Source: an uncultured Gammaproteobacteria bacterium (lineage in GTDB: Bacteria > Patescibacteriota > Microgenomatia > CAZETR01 > Amesbacteraceae). Taken from it: a DNA stretch of 64,000 bases. Made by a program: the position numbers and the translations under genes. The notes beneath the pieces are model-generated. The model made no database searches. It was not told the DNA's origin and worked only from the letters and a program-made list of their open reading frames with translations. Where the stretch lies: NCBI GenBank assembly GCA_964633995.1, contig CAZWKN010000005.1:920-64919 (forward strand). The letters run 5' to 3'. Shown here one piece after another: positions 43,829 to 60,300 of the stretch (the stretch's first letter is position 1; each line of letters starts with the position of its first letter).

Positions 43829-43869
43829 TCCCTCTCCATAATTGTGGAGAGGGGCAGGGGGTGAGGTGG
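43829..43869. repeat. Palindromic repeat element (CCCTCTCC-ATAATTGT-GGAGAGGGG plus GGGGGTGAGGTGG tail), intergenic copy upstream of miaA
   Basis: A 9-bp inverted repeat flanks an AT loop, followed by the G-rich tail. The same architecture recurs at least 12 times in the window. Confidence 0.85.
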
Positions 43870-43884
43870 TTGAGTTAAAATGAG

Positions 43885-44799
43885 ATGATGGTGTCCAAAG
43901 TTCTCATTATCAGTGGTCCTACTGCGACAGGAAAAACTAAATTTGGGTTAGAAATAGCCAAACAGTTCGACGGTGAAATTGTCTCCGCCGACTCTCGCCA
44001 GGTCTACATAGGTAAAAACATAATTCATGGCAAAGATCTCCCCGTCACTGTCAATTGTCAATCGTCAATTGTCAATTGGAGAGGGAGACGTTTAAAATAT
44101 TATGTAGTCGATGGTGTCAGGGTGTGGTTGTATGACGTAGTCAATCCCGGTGAAGACTTCAGTGTGGCTTTTTGGAAAGAATGCGCCGATTTGGTAATAG
44201 CAGATATTGTTTCGCGCAACAAATTGCCAATTATTGTCGGCGGTTCAGGTCTTTACATCAAATCACTTACCCAAAACCTGTCCCAGGTTTCAGTACCCCG
44301 CAACGAGAAACTAAGAGATCAGCTCCTAAATAAATCTGTCAAATACCTGTTTAATTATTTAAATCGTATCGATTCTTTCCGTGCCGCAGCCCTAAATCAT
44401 TCTGATAAAAACAACCCCCGTCGCCTTGTCAGGGCAATTGAATTATCGTTGTCAAAAGAAAAGTTACACCCCTCTCCTGAATTAAAGAGAGGCCTGTCTG
44501 CCGGCATGGCAGGGGTAGGGGGTGAGGTTTTGCAAATTGGTCTCATTGCCCCCCGCGATTATCTTTATCAGCTCGTAAATCACAGGGTCTCAGATCGCAT
44601 TGCAGCCGGCGCTGCCGCCGAGGACGCAAACTTAGCGAATTCACCAGTTCTTTGGCAAAATCAGGAACATGCCATTATTCGCCACCAACTCACCTGGTTC
44701 AAAAAACAACCCAACGTGACTTTTTTTGACGTTTCAGCTCCAAATTGGCAGGCAAACGCAACGACTTTTATCAAAAATTGGTATAATAACTCTACATGA
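43885..44799 (+). CDS. miaA: tRNA dimethylallyltransferase MiaA (carries in-frame repeat-derived insertions)
   Basis: P-loop ISGPTATGKT and SADSRQVY motifs. The ORF includes the heptamer tract at 44050-44078 and the palindromic element at 44468-44529. Confidence 0.85.
   Translation: MMVSKVLIISGPTATGKTKFGLEIAKQFDGEIVSADSRQVYIGKNIIHGKDLPVTVNCQSSIVNWRGRRLKYYVVDGVRVWLYDVVNPGEDFSVAFWKECADLVIADIVSRNKLPIIVGGSGLYIKSLTQNLSQVSVPRNEKLRDQLLNKSVKYLFNYLNRIDSFRAAALNHSDKNNPRRLVRAIELSLSKEKLHPSPELKRGLSAGMAGVGGEVLQIGLIAPRDYLYQLVNHRVSDRIAAGAAAEDANLANSPVLWQNQEHAIIRHQLTWFKKQPNVTFFDVSAPNWQANATTFIKNWYNNST
44050..44078. repeat. Tandem heptamer tract (TCAATTG x4, one variant) inside miaA
   Basis: tcaattg tcaatcg tcaattg tcaattg encodes ...VNCQSSIVN... 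in a region absent from typical MiaA. A similar tract lies in recJ at 56334-56378. Confidence 0.6.
44468..44529. repeat. Palindromic repeat element copy in frame within miaA (encodes ...HPSPELKRGLSAGMAGVGGEV...)
   Basis: CACCCCTCTCC-TGAATTAA-AGAGAGG plus a CTGCCGGCATGGCAGG palindrome module and a GGGGTAGGGGGTGAGG tail. The reading frame avoids the TGA and TAA in the loop. Confidence 0.85.
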
Positions 44800-45793: not shown

Positions 45794-46096
45794 TCCACCT
45801 GGAGACCGTGCGTCTATGCCTCCACAGTCCGGCTTGCCGGATGAAGGGGTAAGGAAAGTCCGGACAGCAGAAGGCAGGGTACCCCGCCGATGAGGCGGGG
45901 ACGCGCAAGCGCTAGATAGTGCCACAGAGACAACGACTCATCCCGCCAATGGCGGGAAAGAGGGTGAAAAGAGGAAAACCTTACCCGCTGCAACCTCCGA
46001 AATGGGTGGGTAGCCTTCCCCAATACCCAAAAGCTTGAGGGCGCAAGATAGATTGACGCATTAAAACAGAATCCGGCTTACCAGTTTCCAGGTGTA
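45794..46096 (+). ncRNA. rnpB: RNase P RNA (bacterial type A), compact roughly 300 nt
   Basis: Conserved P4 strands GGAAAGTCCGGAC (5') and ACAGAATCCGGCTTA (3'). P1 pairing CACCTGGA/TCCAGGTG at the ends. Also ...GCCACAGAGACAA...CCCGCCAATGGCGGG...AGGGTGAAAAGAGG... and GCTTGAGGGCGCAAGATAGATTGAC. Confidence 0.9.
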
Positions 46097-46268: not shown

Positions 46269-46832
46269 ATGCCGTTCTTGCTGGATCCCAAAGGCATTAA
46301 CTTTCGTGATCGCCCCATTCTGTTCATCGACCTAGAAACCACCGGCCTGGATCGACATCATCACGAGATTGTAGAAATTGCCGCCTTACTGGTTTCCCAG
46401 CCAGATTTTACCGTTACCAACTCTTTTTATACTAAAGTTATTCCGACCCATATCGAAACTGCCGATCCAAAAGCTCTCAAAGTGATCAATTATTCACCAG
46501 ATGATTGGCAGGAGGCTATCCCCCTAAACCAGGCTATGGAAGAATTGTCCAACTTTGCTCCTGGTTGCATCTTGGCTGGCTGGTCAGTCCAAACCGAGTG
46601 GGATTTTTTATGCCAATCGTTAGAAGCATGCAAACTCCCGTATTTTTTTACCCACCGGCTATTAGAGGTCTATACTCTGGCTTTTGCCAAATTTTACAAC
46701 GATCAATCCATTTCGTTTCTCAATCTGCCAAATGTTTGCAAAGCTCTAAATATTCGGCTAGATCAGCACAAACCAGATTCGGATATCCGTGCCACCTACG
46801 AGATCTTCAAACGCCTTTTCCCGTCCCCATAA
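46269..46832 (+). CDS. DEDD-family 3'-5' exonuclease (DnaQ/oligoribonuclease-like)
   Basis: Exo I motif ILFIDLETTGLD, Exo II and III regions with H/Y and D. 187 aa. Confidence 0.75.
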   Translation: MPFLLDPKGINFRDRPILFIDLETTGLDRHHHEIVEIAALLVSQPDFTVTNSFYTKVIPTHIETADPKALKVINYSPDDWQEAIPLNQAMEELSNFAPGCILAGWSVQTEWDFLCQSLEACKLPYFFTHRLLEVYTLAFAKFYNDQSISFLNLPNVCKALNIRLDQHKPDSDIRATYEIFKRLFPSP

Positions 46833-47262
46833 TTTCTCTAATTTTTTCAACCACTTTCTCTGTATCACTATCCACCTCCGCATTCCATACTTCCAGCAAG
46901 TTAATTCCAAAAGATTCTAAATATCTTCTTCGATAACAATCATATTTTTTATTGCTCTCGATTTTATGTACACTTCCAAGCAATTCAACCCCAAATCTTT
47001 TTTCCGGGCAATAAAAATCTATCACATATCCATTCACGCTATATTGTCTTCTAAATTTCACACCCAATTTGCCATTTCTCAGACTTTCCCACAACAACTT
47101 CTCTGCCTTTGTTGATTTCTGTCGCAAATCCCTTCTCCGCGCCTTCAATTCTGTACGGTAATACACCCTTTTTCTGTCGTCCACATTTCTAATTTTACTC
47201 TCCCAAAACCCCCCCTCTCCATAATTATGGAGAGGGGGTTGGGGGGTGAGGTGGAAGACCAT
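46807..47262 (-). CDS. DUF559 (Vsr-like endonuclease-fold) domain protein, copy 1; N-terminus runs into the palindromic repeat
   Basis: ...LWESLRNGKLGVKFRRQYSVNGYVIDFYCPEKRFGVELLGSVH... matches the DUF559 core. The first roughly 20 codons (..PPLHNYGEGG..) are encoded by the repeat element at 47210-47240. Confidence 0.7.
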   Translation of the reverse strand: MVFHLTPQPPLHNYGEGGFWESKIRNVDDRKRVYYRTELKARRRDLRQKSTKAEKLLWESLRNGKLGVKFRRQYSVNGYVIDFYCPEKRFGVELLGSVHKIESNKKYDCYRRRYLESFGINLLEVWNAEVDSDTEKVVEKIREIMGTGKGV

Positions 47263-47338
47263 GCGTCACAGTTGGGGTTGGGGGGTGAGGTGGAAGACCA
47301 TATGTCACAGTTGGGTGATGGGGGTGGGGTTGAAAAGG
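47210..47338. repeat. Palindromic repeat element cluster with an internal tandem duplication (about 39-nt unit x2)
   Basis: CCCCCCTCTCC-ATAATTAT-GGAGAGGGGG, then GGTTGGGGGGTGAGGTGGAAGACCAT(G/A)(C/T)GTCACAGTTGG twice. The listed minus ORF 47225..47437 (PPHPPTP repeats) is derived from this repeat. Confidence 0.85.
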
Positions 47339-52028: not shown

Positions 52029-52388
52029 GTGAACCTCAGATATAACAGAGTTTCTCTTAAACCACGTCGCAGACAATTAAGAAAAAATTCAACTCATTGT
52101 GAACAGTTGTTATGGGGAGAAATTAGAAACAGGAAGCTCAAATATAAATTTATTAGGCAGTATAGCGTAGATGGTTATGTAATGGATTTTTATTCACCGG
52201 AAGCAAGATTGGGAATCGAGATCGAAGGGGAGATTCATAAATTTACAAAGAAATACGATAAATATCGAGAAAAATATATAAGTGCGTTTTGGATAAAGAT
52301 TTTAAAATTTAAGAACGATGATATCCAAAACAATATTACCTTTGTCGTGGAAACAATAAAACGAAACCTTGACTCCCCCTCTATTTAA
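52029..52388 (+). CDS. DUF559 (Vsr-like endonuclease-fold) domain protein, copy 2; C-terminus and stop are supplied by the repeat loop
   Basis: ...LLWGEIRNRKLKYKFIRQYSVDGYVMDFYSPEARLGIEIEGEIH... The last codons ..SPSI plus TAA lie inside the palindromic element at 52375. Confidence 0.7.
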   Translation: MNLRYNRVSLKPRRRQLRKNSTHCEQLLWGEIRNRKLKYKFIRQYSVDGYVMDFYSPEARLGIEIEGEIHKFTKKYDKYREKYISAFWIKILKFKNDDIQNNITFVVETIKRNLDSPSI

Positions 52389-52487
52389 CTAAAGAGAGGG
52401 GGGCTGGGGGGTGAGTTAAACACAAACAAATCAAGTTTTCTCCCCCTCTATTTAACTAAAGAGAGGGGGGCTGGGGGGTGAGTTACA
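52375..52487. repeat. Two tandem copies (about 66-nt spacing) of the palindromic element, variant loop TATTTAACTAAAG
   Basis: CCCCCTCTA-TTTAACTAA-AGAGAGGGGGG CTGGGGGGTGAG occurs twice. Confidence 0.85.
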
Positions 52488-53685
52488 CCTTCAACTTCCC
52501 TTTAGTAATCTCCCCCAAATTAGCCAAAATATTTGATTTAAAGTTAAAAGTTAATTGCGACTTTTCTTCATATCTTTTTTCAGCCAGTGCTATCAACTTA
52601 TCCAAAAAGCTGGCATAAGTGTAACCCGATGCAGTCCATAGGAAATGCGCCAAACTTCCGGGAATGGTGTTCAATTCGTTTATATAAATCATTTTCTCAT
52701 CCCGGCTTACTAGAAAATCTGCTCTAGTAAAACCAAATCCGTCGATAGCCGAAAAAGCTTGTTTAGCAAAGTCACTGATCTTTTTCAAAGTACCAGGTTT
52801 TATTGGAGCCGGAATAATGTGTTGGCCCGACGCCATGCCGGCGTTTTTTAGCCCGGTTTTTGTCCCCTTAGACATGTATTTGTCCTCATATGACAGAAGT
52901 CCTTTAGAAGGTACATATTCGCACACAGATGTTTCCAATTCGTCGCCAGAATTACCCATCACCGAAATATTTATTTCCATAAAATTCTCCGCCGATTCCT
53001 CGACCAAAATTTTTCGGTCATAAAAGCACGCCACGTCAATCGCATCTTTCAATTCGGTGGTGGTAGTGGCTCTGGAAATACCAATACTGGATCCACCATT
53101 GCACGGCTTTACATACACCGGCAATTTAAGTTTAGTTAATTTGCGCAATATCATTTCGGCATTTTCTCTCCAGTCCTTCCTGAAAAAATACTGATACTTA
53201 ACTTGTGGGAGGCCGGCCTGAGTAAAAATTTGTTTTTGGATGATTTTGTCCATCCCAAGCGCGGATCCCACTACTCCACATCCTACATATGGCACATTTA
53301 ACAACTCCAATAGTCCCTGTGTGCAACCATCCTCGCCGTTCGTGCCATGAAAAATAGGGAAAATTACATCAGCCTGTTCCAGGGTCTGTATCAGGTTGGT
53401 AGACCCAATCGCCCGAATCTGTTTTGCCAACTTGCCCTTGTCGCTCAAAGAAATCGTCACGCCCGGATTGTTTTCTTCCAATGAAACCAAATCTTTATAT
53501 TTATTGGGGGAAAGAAAAGCATCGTTGCCCAAAATCCACTTACCCGATTTACTGACATAAATAGGTACCAGGTCATACTTGGACCTGTCCAGGTTTTCCA
53601 TTGCTTGGAGTGCCGAAATAATCGAAATCTCATGCTCAGTCGACTTTCCTCCAAACAACACCACCAATCTCTTTTTGGTCATCAC
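52483..53685 (-). CDS. ddl: D-alanine--D-alanine ligase
   Basis: N-terminal LVVLFGGKSTEHEISIISA and an ATP-grasp domain. 400 aa. Confidence 0.85.
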   Translation of the reverse strand: MMTKKRLVVLFGGKSTEHEISIISALQAMENLDRSKYDLVPIYVSKSGKWILGNDAFLSPNKYKDLVSLEENNPGVTISLSDKGKLAKQIRAIGSTNLIQTLEQADVIFPIFHGTNGEDGCTQGLLELLNVPYVGCGVVGSALGMDKIIQKQIFTQAGLPQVKYQYFFRKDWRENAEMILRKLTKLKLPVYVKPCNGGSSIGISRATTTTELKDAIDVACFYDRKILVEESAENFMEINISVMGNSGDELETSVCEYVPSKGLLSYEDKYMSKGTKTGLKNAGMASGQHIIPAPIKPGTLKKISDFAKQAFSAIDGFGFTRADFLVSRDEKMIYINELNTIPGSLAHFLWTASGYTYASFLDKLIALAEKRYEEKSQLTFNFKSNILANLGEITKGKLKV

Positions 53686-55066: not shown

Positions 55067-56683
55067 ATGACTCTCGACTCTATCATCCAACTTCTTCTCA
55101 AAAATCGCGGTCTGACGACCAAAAAAGCTATCGCGGATTTTTTTTCACCTCCCCATCCCAACGATATCATCTCACCCTTTGACTCCAAACCTGCTATCGA
55201 CTTAATTCATAGTCACATAGCTCAAAATAACCCCATTGCCGTTTATGGCGACTACGACGTCGATGGTATCTGTTCAACAGCAATTTTGTGGGAGACGTTG
55301 CATGCAGAATATCCGCATGTTTTTCCCCACATTCCTCACCGAAGGCTTGAAGGTTACGGCTTGTCTATTGCCGGGATCGATCATTGTCTTGCCCAGGGTG
55401 CCAAACTAATTATTGCTGTAGACAACGGTATTACTGCCGTGGATCAGGTTAAGTATTGTCGTGACCATGGATGTGACATTTTAATCATCGACCACCACGA
55501 AAAAGGTTCAACGCTTCCGGATACGCAATATGTACTACACGCTACGGATTGTTGTGCCGCCGGCCTGACCTGGTTTTTCTGCCGAGACTACATTAAAAAA
55601 TTCCCCTCTCCTGAATTAAGGAGAGGGGGCAGGGGTGAGGTTTTAGAACTAGTCTCTCTCGCCACCATATGTGACATGGTTCCTCTAATTGGCACCAACC
55701 GTTCTTTTGCCAAATTTGGATTAGAGCAATTAAACCACACCACCCGCCCCGGCCTCCTTGCCTTATTTCAAAAAGCCTCTCTAACCCCTAACACCCAACC
55801 CCTAACCACCTATCATATCGGTTTTCTCATCGGTCCTCGTCTCAATGCCATGGGTAGATTGGAGCACGCTATCGACAGTCTCCGTCTGCTTTGTACCAAA
55901 GATCCGATCAAGGCAGATTCAATCGCCACTTTACTAAACGACACCAACAAGCTTCGCCAGGATCTTACTGAGTCAGCCGTAAAAAACGCAACAAATTCAC
56001 TATCCCCTAGCTCCCTATCCCCAGTAATAGTTGTCTCCAGCTCGGATTACGACGAAGGGGTTATCGGGTTAATCGCTTCCAAGTTAGTTGAAAAATTTCA
56101 TCATCCGGCAATCGCTATTAGTGTAGGGGAGACCGTGTCCAAAGGTTCAGCCAGATCTATTCCCGGTTTTGATATTACAGCTCATTTGCGCCAGTTTTCC
56201 GGTTTGTTGGTAAGCATAGGTGGTCACACCATGGCCGCTGGTTTCACCATCGAAACCTCAAGGATCCAGGATCTAGTATCTAGCATCTCCCATCCAGATA
56301 TCCCCAAGGAGTTGTTGCAAAAAACCCAACGTGTCGATTGCGAAATTCCATTGTCGATTGTCAATTCTCAATTATCAACTGCACTCAAATCTTTCGAGCC
56401 ATTTGGCCTTGGCAACCCCACTCCGGTTTTTCAATCACAAGCCGAAATTTCATCGATCAAAACCATGGGCAGTATGGGACAACATGCCAGGTTAACTCTA
56501 AAGGATTGTCCATTCGATGCCGTCTGGTTCAACGCCACATTCCCCTCTCCTGAAATGAGGAGAGGGGGTAGGGGTGAGGTTGTGGGAGAAGTTTGGAACA
56601 TAATTTATACTCTCTCCGAAAACACCTACAACGGCCAAACCAAACTCCAGCTACTCATCAAATCCGTTACCCCCTCTCCATGA
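55067..56683 (+). CDS. recJ: Single-stranded-DNA-specific exonuclease RecJ (DHH/DHHA1), carrying two in-frame palindromic-element insertions
   Basis: DHH motifs (VYGDYDVDGICS; ILIIDHHE) and a DHHA1 region (GGHTMAAG). The stop TGA lies in the loop of the repeat copy at 56670. Confidence 0.85.
   Translation: MTLDSIIQLLLKNRGLTTKKAIADFFSPPHPNDIISPFDSKPAIDLIHSHIAQNNPIAVYGDYDVDGICSTAILWETLHAEYPHVFPHIPHRRLEGYGLSIAGIDHCLAQGAKLIIAVDNGITAVDQVKYCRDHGCDILIIDHHEKGSTLPDTQYVLHATDCCAAGLTWFFCRDYIKKFPSPELRRGGRGEVLELVSLATICDMVPLIGTNRSFAKFGLEQLNHTTRPGLLALFQKASLTPNTQPLTTYHIGFLIGPRLNAMGRLEHAIDSLRLLCTKDPIKADSIATLLNDTNKLRQDLTESAVKNATNSLSPSSLSPVIVVSSSDYDEGVIGLIASKLVEKFHHPAIAISVGETVSKGSARSIPGFDITAHLRQFSGLLVSIGGHTMAAGFTIETSRIQDLVSSISHPDIPKELLQKTQRVDCEIPLSIVNSQLSTALKSFEPFGLGNPTPVFQSQAEISSIKTMGSMGQHARLTLKDCPFDAVWFNATFPSPEMRRGGRGEVVGEVWNIIYTLSENTYNGQTKLQLLIKSVTPSP
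55601..55641. repeat. Palindromic element copy in frame within recJ (encodes FPSPELRRGGRGEV)
   Basis: TCCCCTCTCC-TGAATTAA-GGAGAGGGGG CAGGGGTGAGG. Confidence 0.85.
56334..56378. repeat. Degenerate tandem heptamer tract (TCGATTG/TCAATTN) inside recJ
   Basis: tcgattg cgaaattccat tgtcgattg tcaattc tcaatta tcaa encodes ...DCEIPLSIVNSQLST... The heptamer family matches the miaA tract. Confidence 0.5.
56541..56581. repeat. Second palindromic element copy in frame within recJ (encodes FPSPEMRRGGRGEV)
   Basis: TCCCCTCTCC-TGAAATGA-GGAGAGGGGG TAGGGGTGAGG. Confidence 0.85.
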
Positions 56684-56995
56684 TTATGGAGAGGGGGGGC
56701 CTGCCCGCCGGCAGGCGGGGGTGAGGTGGAATATTATGTCATCGCTAAACCCGCCCTGGCGGGTGTGGCGATCTTGGGTAGAGATTGCTTCTCTTCGTTC
56801 GCAATGACATAAAACTGTTCGTGCACCCCCCTCTTAAATTAAGAGGGGGGAAGGGGGGTGATATCTCTCTTATGGTGTCATCGCGAACCCGCCCCGGCAA
56901 TCCCATATTGTCATCGCGAACCCGCCTTGGCGGATGTGGAGATCTACATCTCCCTCTCCTGAAATGAGGAGAGGGAATAAGGGAGAGGTCATAAT
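56668..56995. repeat. Dense composite repeat cluster: three palindromic-element variants plus three copies of a second repeat (TGTCATCGCGAACCCGCC-YTGG-CGGRTGTGG) and an inverted partial copy
   Basis: Element variants at 56670-56730 (loop ATGATTAT plus a GCCTGCCCGCCGGCAGGCGGG module), 56826-56865 (CTCTTAAATTAAGAG) and 56948-56992 (CTCTCCTGAAATGAGGAGAG). TGTCATCGC... copies at 56737, 56876 and 56908, with an inverted GCAATGACA copy at 56801. Confidence 0.8.
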
Positions 56996-56998
56996 AAG

Positions 56999-57184
56999 CT
57001 AAGTTCTAGCTGTTCTTGCTCTTTGTGCGACCTTTTTATCTTCTTCAGCTCTTCTCCTTTGCGCTTCAGTGGGTCTGAATTGTGGCACTAGCCCCAAAAC
57101 CGCATTCATAATCATATCTCTCATGGGCAACCCCGCTTCGTGAGCGCAACCAAATTTTGCAGGTTTTGCTTCTGTTGCTGCCAT
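56999..57184 (-). CDS. Small hypothetical protein (61 aa) with basic C-terminus
   Basis: Canonical SD AAGGAGGTGA 7 nt upstream of the ATG (minus strand). Confidence 0.5.
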   Translation of the reverse strand: MAATEAKPAKFGCAHEAGLPMRDMIMNAVLGLVPQFRPTEAQRRRAEEDKKVAQRARTART

Positions 57185-57205
57185 ATTTTTTCACCTCCTT
57201 CAACT

Positions 57206-57228
57206 AAAAAACCCCGCTTTTTGCGGGG
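57206..57228 (-). terminator. Intrinsic terminator-like hairpin (CCCCGC-AAAAA-GCGGGG plus TTTTTT on the minus strand) 9 nt upstream of the small gene's SD; possible attenuator
   Basis: GC hairpin and U-tract read on the minus strand, placed between the upstream leader and the RBS of 56999..57184. Confidence 0.5.
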
Positions 57229-57362
57229 TATTTGTAAAAAATAAATAACGTTTCTTACATTCCCCCGCGGATTGCCCAGTTAAGGACAATACGAAGCCCG
57301 CCCTTAATAATGGCGTGCTGGGAAAATGTATGCATCAAAGACATGTGAAACATTTTAATATC

Positions 57363-57391
57363 TTGACTTAAGTTTAGTCAAGAACGATAAT
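57363..57391 (+). promoter_or_regulatory. Sigma-70-like promoter (TTGACT-N17-GATAAT) directed toward aspS; -35 embedded in a palindrome TTGAC-N10-GTCAA
   Basis: Near-consensus -35 and -10 hexamers with 17-nt spacing, about 190 nt upstream of the aspS ATG. Confidence 0.5.
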
Positions 57392-57537
57392 ACCCTCAAA
57401 GCGTTATTAGTCTGCCGACACCAGACGAGCTTCCCGAAAAAACCGGGACGGACCCATCCGTAAAAGTGGAAATCAAGACCCCTGATGTGGATGGCACCTT
57501 GGATCCGCACCATTAAAGGGTCTTTTTTGTTTTTATT

Positions 57538-57580
57538 TCCCCTCTTAGATTAAGAGGGGAACCCGAAGGAGGGGTGATAT
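57538..57580. repeat. Palindromic element variant (CCCCTCTTAGATTAAGAGGGG plus GGAGGGGTGA) overlapping the aspS ribosome-binding site
   Basis: The tail AAGGAGGGG ends 9-11 nt before the aspS ATG. Confidence 0.75.
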
Positions 57581-57583
57581 TTT

Positions 57584-58900: not shown

Positions 58901-59805
58901 CCAAGAAATTTCTTATCCGCAAATTCAAGCTGCTATTTCATAAATCCAAAAAAAAAGATTTTTCTCACCTGGCGGTCTTTTTATTGACGGTTTTAATCGG
59001 TCTAAATCTTTCATCACCATCAAAAATCCCGGTTACTAGGCAGTCGGTTTTAGGGCAATCATCAAAATTTCTCAAAGCCTCGCCACCCGTCGTTTCCGCT
59101 AAAAGCGTTTTTATTCTCGATATAACTTCTGGGGAAGTGGTCTATCAAAAACAAGCAGATTCCGAGGTCTACCCGGCATCCACCACCAAAATGATGACAG
59201 CTGTAATTGCCAAAGAAACTTTCGACCCGAATCAAGTCCTCACCATTTCCCGTCTATATAATCTTGGGAGTCAGGATCTCAAATTGCCGGTAGGCGGGAA
59301 AATTACTATAGAAAAATTGCTGTACGCTCTCCTGGTTTCTTCTTCAAACGATGCGGCCGAAATACTTGCCGAAAATTACCCCGGAGGAAGAACCGCTTTC
59401 GTTGAGGCCATGAATCGCAAGGCTTCGGAACTGTTACTTCACCACACTCATTTTGAAAATCCTACCGGCTTGGACCAAATAAACCATTATTCATCCGCAG
59501 CCGATTTAGCCAGGTTGGCCAAACATCTGATTTCAGTTCCGGAATTAGCCAGGATCGTTGGGACTCAAACCGCCGTCCTTTCCACCGTCGACTTTTCCGG
59601 GGTCTACACGGTCACAAATGTAAACCAGCTGTTGGGTAAAGTGCCTGGCGTTATGGGGGTAAAGACTGGTTTTACAGATTTAGCAGGCCAGGTCTTAGTG
59701 ACTTACGTCAATCGCGAGAACAGACCTCTAATCATTAGTGTCCTGGGCAGTTTAGACCGTTTTTCTGATACCGAATCCCTCATCACCTGGGCCTATTCGC
59801 AATAA
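58897..59805 (+). CDS. D-alanyl-D-alanine carboxypeptidase (S11 family, PBP5-like)
   Basis: SxxK ASTTKMM, SxN SSSND and KTG KTGFT motifs. N-terminal TM or signal. Confidence 0.8.
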   Translation: MTKKFLIRKFKLLFHKSKKKDFSHLAVFLLTVLIGLNLSSPSKIPVTRQSVLGQSSKFLKASPPVVSAKSVFILDITSGEVVYQKQADSEVYPASTTKMMTAVIAKETFDPNQVLTISRLYNLGSQDLKLPVGGKITIEKLLYALLVSSSNDAAEILAENYPGGRTAFVEAMNRKASELLLHHTHFENPTGLDQINHYSSAADLARLAKHLISVPELARIVGTQTAVLSTVDFSGVYTVTNVNQLLGKVPGVMGVKTGFTDLAGQVLVTYVNRENRPLIISVLGSLDRFSDTESLITWAYSQ

Positions 59806-60130
59806 CAACTTCTCCACAACCTTGTCCATATCCCTTTCAACTTCATTATTCCAAAATTCCAGTACAACTATGCCAAACGCCTCTAAATATTTTTTTCTGT
59901 AACCATCATATCGATCCCCAATCTTTTTTCCGGACAATAAAAATCCATTACATACCCATTCACGCTGTACTGTCTTCTAAATTTTACCCATAATTGATTG
60001 TTTCGCAATTTTTCCCAAAGCAATTTCTCTGCATTCGTCGATTTTTGTCGTTAATCTCTTCTTCTGGCCTTGAGTTCAGTACGATAATATACTCTTTTTC
60101 TATCGTCCATGCCATAATTTTACTCTTCTT
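59752..60130 (-). pseudogene. DUF559 gene copy 3, disrupted (frameshifted); only a 61-aa C-terminal ORF remains
   Basis: Nucleotide sequence 59905-60125 is near-identical to 46925-47205 (DUF559 copy 1) but with a broken frame. The remnant ORF ...KKYLEAFGIVVLEFWNNEVERDMDKVVEKL matches the copy-1 C-terminus. It is followed by the same palindromic element. Confidence 0.7.
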
Positions 60131-60133
60131 ATT

Positions 60134-60300
60134 TCTCCCCTCTCCACAATTGTGGAGAGGGGCAGGCCTGCCTGCCGGCAGGCAGGGGGTGAGGTGGTAC
60201 GCGTGTCGCGGAATTATTGTGAAGTTATGGTTACAGCGTGTGGGCAGGGGGTGAGGTGGTACACACGTCGCGGAACTATTGTGAAGTTATGGTTACAGCA
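60134..60300. repeat. Palindromic element (loop ACAATTGT plus GCCTGCCTGCCGGCAGGCAGG module) followed by a diverged tandem duplication (about 62-nt period x2)
   Basis: CCCTCTCC-ACAATTGT-GGAGAGGGG, then GGCAGGGGGTGAGGTGGTAC..CGTCGCGGAA.TATTGTGAAGTTATGGTTACAGC repeated at 60181 and 60243. Confidence 0.85.

Follow-up and report, generated by a model that had tools for sequence, protein, structure and literature searches.

We analyzed a 64,000-nucleotide (nt) stretch of DNA (hereafter, the window) deposited as an uncultured Gammaproteobacteria bacterium and placed by GTDB in Patescibacteriota, Microgenomatia, CAZETR01, Amesbacteraceae (GenBank assembly GCA_964633995.1, contig CAZWKN010000005.1, positions 920 to 64,919 of the forward strand). 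It carries 12 copies of a short three-arm repeat, 5 of which overlap sense-strand coding sequence (3 in frame, 2 holding stop codons), whereas a sixth touches a stop codon on the opposite strand and the others are intergenic. As a whole, these observations are best explained, and we think probably correctly so, by a repeat of the triplex type that has a single open frame and ends the open reading frames (ORFs) it abuts, the tail of RecJ having been supplied by a solo copy and that of a DUF559 protein by a cassette. A preliminary description of this DNA had pointed out the 2 stop codons that lie in repeat copies, at the ends of recJ and of a DUF559 gene. Beyond these overlaps, we found 2 copies in frame inside recJ, 1 in frame inside miaA, and the stop codon of ddl in the tail of a further copy; the in-frame copies are a more striking feature than the recJ terminus.

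Structure and identity of the repeat

All 12 copies lie on the plus strand, as defined by the third arm, between 43.8 and 60.3 kb, and together with 3 DUF559 copies they occupy a single 16.5-kb stretch, the remaining 47.5 kb containing neither. The motif CCCTCT-N6-16-AGAGGG has 11 matches in the window versus 0.01 expected, and GGGGTGAG has 11 versus 1.5 expected, all of them on the plus strand. In the repeat, a pyrimidine arm is followed by its purine complement and then by another purine arm that is the mirror image of this complement; the stem arms are perfect over 8 to 12 nt in 11 of the 12 copies. Under maximal pairing, the first loop measures 3 to 6 nt in 9 of these 11 copies and 12 nt in 2 copies of the DUF559 type; it is A/T-rich in the window copies and often includes stop codons. 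The second loop spans 2 to 4 nt in most copies, approximately 11 nt in one, and approximately 20 to 30 nt in three (44469, 56670, and 60137), where it holds a second GC hairpin between the purine arms. Computed folding of the 63-nt recJ-terminal unit as single-stranded DNA yields two hairpins at −23.5 kcal/mol (z = −5.1), a value equaled by none of 200 shuffled sequences.

The third arm matches the stem sub-type, with AGGAGAG accompanied by TGAGGT, AAAGAGAG by TGAGTTA, and TAAGAG by TGATA. Across 21 copies, triad compatibility past the G-run is 91%, compared with 82 ± 2% for permuted third arms; 0 of 5,000 permutations reach 91%, which, the copies being related, is to be read as support and not as a strict probability. 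The window copies display two features of BoxC/PIT/TM_ECO repeats, namely, the mirror arm of the class II purine motif (G·G, A·A, or T·A triads) and a perfect purine complement of an approximately 9-nt CCCTCNCCC-like pyrimidine arm after a short loop. A scan of one genome per GTDB species with the pattern CCCTCTCY-N5-12-RGAGAGGG-N2-8-GGGGTGAG returned at least 120 loci, and the matches listed include Planctomycetota, Chloroflexota, Cyanobacteria, Verrucomicrobiota, Acidobacteriota, Saganbacteria, and others, in addition to Alpha-, Beta-, and Gammaproteobacteria (Pseudomonas, Xanthomonas, Enterobacter, and Acinetobacter). This single pattern fits the window copies and those of Enterobacter, Pseudomonas, and Xanthomonas alike. 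Judged by its sequence, the window repeat is a Microgenomates (Candidate Phyla Radiation, CPR) sub-family of the BoxC/PIT/"TM" intrastrand-triplex (hairpin/G-quadruplex) family, and this sub-family is distinct in its location in coding sequence, its A/T-rich first loop, and its optional second hairpin.

BoxC and PIT repeats were reportedly treated by Bachellier and by Hoyne & Maher (2000, 2002). The TM_ECO pattern, CCCTCNCCC-N3-6-GGGNGAGGG-N3-GGGNGAGGG, for which BoxC and PIT are earlier names, has been described as an intrastrand triplex of the class II purine motif with stability in vitro (Holder et al. 2015, PMC4666352), and the same sequences have been read as an HPG1/HPG2 G-quadruplex-hairpin-duplex switch (Kaplan et al. 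2016, PMC5100583). The E. coli copies are without exception intergenic, none being inside an ORF, and the repeat has no associated transposase and no known function but is linked to local genome instability (PMC4666352, PMC5100583). Rfam scans of 42-62 kb and 57.18-57.6 kb of the window returned no family matching the repeats. KOPS- or Chi-like polar motifs and RNA structure were set aside as causes of the strand bias, both orientations being found side by side in other genomes.

Reading frames and in-frame copies

When the 12 copies are read as sense sequence, 9 have just one open frame, one has two, and the 2 copies of the DUF559 type have none; frames are closed by TGA or TAA in the first loop and by G-TGA-G in the third arm. 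Each of the 3 internal copies is read in exactly the single open frame, namely, the copies at 55600-55643 (FPSPELRRGGRGEV, amino acids (aa) ~179-192) and 56539-56582 (FPSPEMRRGGRGEV, aa ~491-504) of recJ and the copy with a second hairpin at 44466-44531 of miaA (HPSPELKRGLSAGMAGVGGEV), all on the plus strand. Because sense copies are mostly open in a single frame, a copy inside a gene survives only in that frame, and a copy abutting a gene end closes the ORF within itself.

The recJ insertions recur outside the window. In an alignment of 120 RecJ orthologs from Microgenomates/Amesbacteria-type CPR bacteria, where the best non-self match to the window protein has 63% identity, element-type peptides (PSPELRRGxGGEV, PSPSLELREGLGVS, and PSTESGEGKGVR) are found at the same three loops of RecJ, each of these sites being occupied in at least 8 to 9 orthologs. 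At the first recJ site, the first loop is identical in the window copy and in that of the orthologous locus L001, and the flanking coding DNA has diverged. Both the indel pattern among the orthologs and alignment to PDB structures place the in-frame recJ copies in variable protein segments. The 2 recJ copies are flanked by TT..TT and the miaA copy by CA..TT; the single unit comprises a hairpin and a tail, with no pair of terminal inverted repeats. Elsewhere in miaA, a short in-frame tandem repeat of GTCAATTGTCAAT-like units at 44045-44085 encodes ..VTVNCQSSIVNW.., a segment that solved MiaA homologs lack. A further plus-strand copy (43830-43870) is intergenic, upstream of miaA.

The recJ terminus

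recJ (55067-56683, plus strand; 538 aa; Pfam DHH, DHHA1, and RecJ_OB) has its last three codons and its stop in the plus-strand copy at 56670-56729. The latter consists of a pyrimidine arm (56670-56681), the loop GATT (56682-56685), a purine arm (56686-56697), an inserted second GC hairpin (approximately 56699-56716), and the mirror (reverse-Hoogsteen) arm GGGGGTGAGGTGG (56717-56729). The protein ends ..LLIKSVTPSP (..KLQLLIKSVTPSP); its P-S-P codons (56672-56680) belong to the pyrimidine arm of CCCCCTCTCCAT-GATT-ATGGAGAGGGGG (56670-56697), and the stop TGA (56681-56683) is made of the last stem base and two loop bases under maximal pairing. The preliminary description had thus correctly placed the stop inside the repeat and the preceding codons in its stem, and needs only the minor correction that the loop is GATT and not "CCA-TGATTAT-GG."

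The conserved part of RecJ ends at ..LQLxIKx(V/I), aligned with residue 557 of the solved RecJ 8Y30, and is followed in the 120 orthologs by 0 to 17 unconserved aa, the 4 aa of the window protein being the modal length. A solo copy sits immediately behind the last conserved residues and supplies P-S-P and the stop, probably replacing a short tail that varies in every ortholog. We read this as the exchange of a short neutral tail, an effect that is real but minor, and at the protein level the consequences at both the recJ and the DUF559 termini are probably neutral. The suggestion that the elements "actively remodel coding termini" is accordingly overstated for this unconserved tail of modal length.

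The DNA of nine orthologous recJ loci was compared (L002 duplicates L001, and L004 duplicates L003). In L001 (P0002), an element at the recJ 3' end places the stop in the first loop (..KEVSPSL), with CTT TGA TTA AAG in the same register as the CCA TGA TTA TGG of the window and all three arms differing coordinately. L005 (P0003) has an L001-type copy with a 26-nt nested insert and its stop likewise in the first loop. In L130 (P0041), the element lies two codons further on and is read through to the TGA of the third arm (..SNPSPEFRRGERKG), and L129 (P0006) retains only a remnant resembling the pyrimidine arm (..TFPSPIN). Four loci are element-free at this site: L003 ends ..KTVT, L007 ends ..KDIQSSP with an ATGA overlap with relA, L128 ends ..KDVRPSS, and the 13-aa tail of L006 overlaps relA.

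These element-free loci bear on an alternative in which the recJ terminus is ancestral, its pyrimidine-rich tail (..TCT TCT CCA TGA or CCC AGC TCT TGA) having served as microhomology or seed to which the repeat was joined by recombination or template switching, with no notable coding change. The terminus may indeed predate the element, because L007 and L128 stop in the same alignment column as the KSVTPSP of the window and L007 has 9 nt (TCTCCATGA) identical to the window; the modal length of the tail and the presence of P-S at the internal insertion sites of element-free orthologs as well (e.g., VPS-LELV and APS-LELV) point in the same direction. Against this, L003, which has the same gene order without relA as the window, ends ..KTVT, as fits plain insertion after V-T; the pyrimidine arm is the full 12-nt family consensus, in a hairpin identical at 27 of 28 positions to that of the copy at 47211, and not local sequence; and the element of L130 lies two codons further on, so that elements have entered the junction in more than one register. 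We regard an ancestral terminus as unlikely. The comparison of C-terminal lengths that the preliminary description had proposed cuts both ways, with a differing element-free terminus in L003 and the shared column in L007 and L128, the latter being in part the outcome that it had named as refuting its reading. Its broader claim, that both genes acquired new 3' ends by insertion, is partly supported: it holds for recJ in a narrow sense, the last codons and stop being element sequence and element-free termini existing, but not for DUF559 as a recent acquisition, the terminal copy there being an old part of a cassette (see below).

An in-frame ancestral stop downstream of the recJ element, a search for which had also been proposed, is not visible: after excision of the 60-nt copy in silico, recJ continues into the repeat that follows (..KSVKYYVIAKPALAGVAILGRDCFSSFAMT). 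Stacked repeats make up nearly all of the 315 nt that separate recJ from the next gene, and for this reason an older stop is not recoverable. This pile includes 2 intergenic plus-strand copies, one at 56826-56866 (stem CCCCCCTCTTA, third arm GGGGGGTGATA) and a degenerate one at 56952-56990. Interleaved with the triplex-type copies is a second repeat family (TGTCATCGCGAACCCGCC..GGCGGGTGTGGCGATC, and GAGATTGCTTCTCTTCGTTCGCAATGACA) at 56730-56825 and 56867-56950, and peptides related to it (SCHPERSRGI..SLSRDDK) are found in frame in the RecJ orthologs P0012, P0015, and P0032.

The junction itself has been rearranged, because relA/spoT follows recJ in L001, L006, L007, and L128 and is absent from the window, L003, and L129. 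In the latter three (56684-57583 in the window), its place is occupied by repeats and short minus-strand ORFs; between the window and L003, the short ORFs that follow recJ have no obvious similarity, and the L129 region is without a clean reading frame. In a neighbor-joining tree, the window RecJ forms an isolated branch and P0002 and P0003 group with the element-free P0009 and P0011; by this tree, the recJ 3' copy may have been gained once or several times.

Finally, the window derives from a metagenome-assembled contig, and repeats can cause mis-joins, so the overlap between stop codon and repeat could be thought coincidental or a product of errors in assembly or ORF calling. Such an explanation can practically be dismissed: the same arrangement is found in independent assemblies (L001/L002, L005, L130, L003/L004, and L128) and in the finished genome of E. 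coli K-12, and the RecJ alignment ends exactly at this point.

DUF559 genes and their repeats

The window contains 3 DUF559 copies, all of which abut a repeat: copy 1 (46807-47184, minus strand), copy 2 (52029-52388, plus strand; 119 aa; Pfam DUF559, E = 1.7e-25), and copy 3 (59797-60109, minus strand), a pseudogene with internal stops. Copy 2 ends ..RNLDSPSI, and its stop TAA (52386-52388) lies in the loop of CCCCCTCT-ATTTAACTAAAG-AGAGGGGG, the first loop of the plus-strand repeat copy at 52375-52418; the reported location of the last codons, SPSI, and of the stop in the stem and loop of this element is therefore confirmed. A second plus-strand repeat copy (52442-52488), 98% identical, lies 67 nt downstream of the first, and its tail GTGAGTTA holds the complement (TTA) of the TAA stop (52483-52485) of ddl, the minus-strand gene for D-Ala-D-Ala ligase (52483-53685). 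DUF559 copies 1 and 3 share 76% DNA identity, which extends into the adjacent repeats. These are the plus-strand copies at 47211-47312, directly upstream of DUF559 copy 1 and followed by a tandem duplication of its own tail, and at 60137-60260, directly upstream of DUF559 copy 3, with a second hairpin and a duplicated tail; the second hairpin of the recJ-terminal copy is also found in the latter. The duplications, located beside the repeat copies that precede the minus-strand DUF559 genes, comprise the third arm and approximately 30 to 50 nt of flank (47235-47312 and 60181-60299; 95% and 93% identity).

Copy 2 is syntenic with the DUF559 gene that follows secF in L003 and L128, where the reading frame continues through the hairpin and stops at GGG-TGA-G of the third arm, whereas the post-secF site of L001 has neither DUF559 gene nor repeat. 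Almost all of the 14 closest DUF559 homologs end in element-derived peptides (SLSLPKRGIKG, SLSLPKRGTKG, LNPLSLIKERGTKGVS, NSPSL, and NVPSL). The association reaches E. coli K-12, in which the DUF559 protein YcjD ends ..RRSPSP and the TGA of ycjD lies in the loop of CCCTCTCCC-TGAAAG-AGCGAGGGGG, a BoxC-like hairpin, with a canonical BoxC approximately 170 nt past it (NC_000913.3, 1351390-1351430 and 1351200-1351245). This canonical copy is the one listed between fabI and "yjcD" in Table 1 of PMC5100583. A duplicated fragment of the ycjD 3' end is located just downstream of ycjD.

The link between repeat and gene was examined in both directions. When loci were chosen by the repeat pattern only and their ORFs were clustered all against all with the repeats masked, DUF559 was, among the at least 120 loci, the only family with every member (6 of 6) within 300 nt of a copy, and in 5 of the 6 loci copies lie on both sides of the gene. 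These loci belong to a Saganbacteria metagenome-assembled genome (MAG), Gemmataceae, Acinetobacter portensis, Beijerinckiaceae, Variovorax, and another betaproteobacterium. Conversely, when 80 metagenome loci were chosen by DUF559 homology only (38-62% identity; the query was a CPR alignment, and the loci represent one DUF559 sub-family), a complete three-arm element was present within 150 nt of the gene in 72, with 59 upstream, 46 at the 3' end, and 33 on both sides. Repeat density in these loci is 2.78 per kb beside the gene versus 0.17 per kb elsewhere. Where copies lie on both sides, they form an inverted pair whose third arms face outward (minus upstream, plus downstream) in 20 of 33 loci, and copies of the same locus are more alike (0.82) than copies of different loci (0.72; p = 1e-7). 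A downstream hairpin is present in 46 loci, and in 35 of these the element contains the DUF559 stop, which falls in the hairpin in 22 loci and in the second loop, the third arm, or just past it in 13.

The picture that emerges is of a conserved cassette consisting of a repeat, the DUF559 gene, and an inverted repeat, the downstream copy normally overlapping the stop. Because the tails of the homologs are element-derived, 35 of 46 stops lie inside the element, and ycjD is built in the same way, the DUF559 terminal copy is an old, constitutive part of this cassette and not a fresh insertion, with only the exact position of the stop sliding. In 2 Betaproteobacteria, the entire cassette lies in frame inside metG (positions 2-2161 of L011, a Variovorax MAG, and 1777-4515 of L026, an uncultured betaproteobacterium), where a single ORF encodes tRNA-synt_1g, Anticodon_3, DUF559, and tRNA_bind, the insertion coming after the anticodon-binding domain and before the C-terminal tRNA-binding domain. 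Solo copies are present in the window and in all related loci, and may derive from, or depend on, DUF559 cassettes. In several unrelated genomes (L012, L043, L062, L085, L107, L112, and L118), the repeat is found within or beside the same conserved multi-gene operon.

Profile comparison of DUF559 with the PDB gave 3HRL, an endonuclease-like protein, at E = 3e-32 and, more weakly, 3R3P ("mobile intron protein," the homing endonuclease I-Bth0305I) at E = 3e-4, and the catalytic-core positions are invariant from CPR bacteria to E. coli. DUF559 could be a mobilizing nuclease, comparable to RAYT and its REP, or a homing gene directed at repeat sites. That DUF559/YcjD is the cognate enzyme of the BoxC/PIT/TM repeats, with the cassettes as autonomous or "master" units, or else a homing gene targeting the repeats, and that the dispersed solo copies (those of recJ and miaA among them) and the metG cassette are non-autonomous derivatives, is a proposal that we put forward tentatively, with the odds slightly against it. 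In the open-access literature on DUF559, ycjD, BoxC, REPIN/RAYT, and in-frame repeats of CPR bacteria, we found no paper tying DUF559 to these repeats. The co-clustering of 12 repeats and 3 DUF559 copies in 16.5 kb fits local spread and also the view of such regions as an "instability hot spot" (Holder et al.).

Copies with a possible cis-acting role

The plus-strand copy at 57539-57580 follows a terminator-like hairpin and precedes the ribosome-binding site of a gene for a class II aminoacyl-tRNA synthetase (aaRS), and its third arm contributes GGAGG before the start codon; a copy is present at the same place in L003 (5348-5390). An alternative is that the gene-end copies are selected cis structures, such as mRNA 3' stabilizers, terminators, or devices of translational coupling or occlusion, the overlap with the stop codon being functional and not a by-product. 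Such selection would account for the retention of some orthologous copies, namely, those before the aaRS gene, at the 3' end of recJ (L001 and L005), and at that of DUF559, despite approximately 40% protein divergence, and for the GGAGG of the copy at 57539. However, the hairpins are not followed by a T-run, PIT elements showed neither promoter nor terminator activity in E. coli (PMC4666352), many orthologs have no copies, and copies also occur mid-gene and in frame, where such roles make no sense. We consider this explanation improbable, a shade more so than that of an ancestral recJ terminus.

The aaRS gene is preceded, in the window (57350-57583), in L003 (5200-5400), and in L129 (3340-3515), by a conserved leader-like region with the terminator-like hairpin (..AAAGGGTCTTTTTTG). 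A T-box was considered for this region and dropped, as neither a T-box nor another Rfam family was detected in 57.18-57.6 kb. Away from the repeats, the window encodes a class A bacterial RNase P RNA (45798-46096; 113 bits, above the gathering score).

Our preferred reading, in which a triplex-type repeat with a single open frame ends ORFs, has to be held against several observations that weigh on the other side, in addition to the shared stop column and the 9 identical nt of the element-free recJ loci. All 12 copies have the same plus orientation, for which this reading offers no explanation, the more so as antisense copies would have more open frames than sense copies. Among relatives at 58-65% protein identity, neither a target-site duplication nor an exact empty site could be defined. 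The window RecJ is not sister to the 2 other element-bearing orthologs, and the register that it shares with them calls for either several insertions at this one junction or several losses of the copy. The copies kept at orthologous places (57539 and L003; recJ site 1 and L001) could reflect selection for a cis function and not mobility. The link of the repeat to DUF559, a Vsr-like PD-(D/E)xK endonuclease by sequence, is an association. In E. coli, moreover, neither triplex formation in vivo nor promoter or terminator activity was detected, and the family is strictly intergenic (PMC4666352).

Significance

By themselves, the 2 stop overlaps alter a handful of unconserved residues and matter little. 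BoxC/PIT/TM repeats, known for approximately 30 years, occur abundantly across bacteria and are linked to genome instability; to our knowledge, no function, origin, or spreading mechanism has been assigned to them. New here is that such repeats are tolerated in coding sequence in one frame, recurring at the same protein loops in many CPR lineages, and that, in tests in both directions, DUF559 endonuclease genes from different phyla, ycjD of E. coli among them, prove to be bracketed by the repeats. The DUF559 link makes the origin of an orphan repeat family testable, bears on an orphan protein family as well, and may point to the enzyme of the repeat. If the proposed role of DUF559 were true, it would amount to a counterpart of the REPtrons with another nuclease fold, extending from CPR bacteria to Proteobacteria.

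Comparison with known systems

The closest likeness is to BoxC/PIT/TM_ECO, with which the window repeat shares the three-arm layout and near-identical arms (CCCTCTCC / GGAGAGGG / GGGGTGAGG), the class II purine-motif mirror symmetry, loops that are short in most copies, many dispersed copies, clustering with rearranged regions, and the lack of a transposase nearby. It differs in that E. coli copies are exclusively intergenic (a descriptive trait and not part of the structural definition), whereas 5 of the 12 window copies overlap sense coding sequence, as well as in the A/T-rich first loop with stops, the extra GC hairpin in three copies, and the one shared orientation. A DUF559 link is not reported in the papers on the E. 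coli family (PMC4666352, PMC5100583).

The persistence of short palindromes in frame in housekeeping genes, adding peptides in loops, fusions, or altered ends, is shared with Rickettsia palindromic elements and intragenic miniature inverted-repeat transposable elements (PMC10969869; Coxiella QMITEs, PMC5896051). Rickettsia palindromic elements are approximately 100 to 150 bp long, confined to one lineage, and unrelated in sequence, whereas the window repeat measures 40 to 65 nt, has a third mirror arm, and occurs across bacteria; size, sequence, and host all set it apart from that family.

The DUF559 cassettes resemble the REP/REPIN-RAYT "REPtrons" (PMC3116915, PMC3337134) in having a small nuclease-type gene bracketed by inverted hairpin repeats (copies on both sides in 33 of 80 DUF559 loci, opposed in 20 of the 33), in the many solo or paired copies, and in vertical inheritance over long times. 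RAYT, however, is an HUH Y1 transposase, whereas the gene here encodes a DUF559/Vsr-like PD-(D/E)xK protein and the repeat lacks a GTAG or CGTC tag; DUF559 was the only consistent neighbor of the repeats, and no HUH Y1 (IS200-like) transposase was found in that role, although no Y1-specific scan of the window was made. Vsr-like EDxHD homing endonucleases (I-Bth0305I, PDB 3R3P) differ in context, there being no intron or intein here, but match the DUF559 profile with weak similarity and offer parallels both to presence or absence at a fixed site (post-secF, present in the window, L003, and L128 and absent from L001) and to the cassette located in frame inside metG in 2 Betaproteobacteria.

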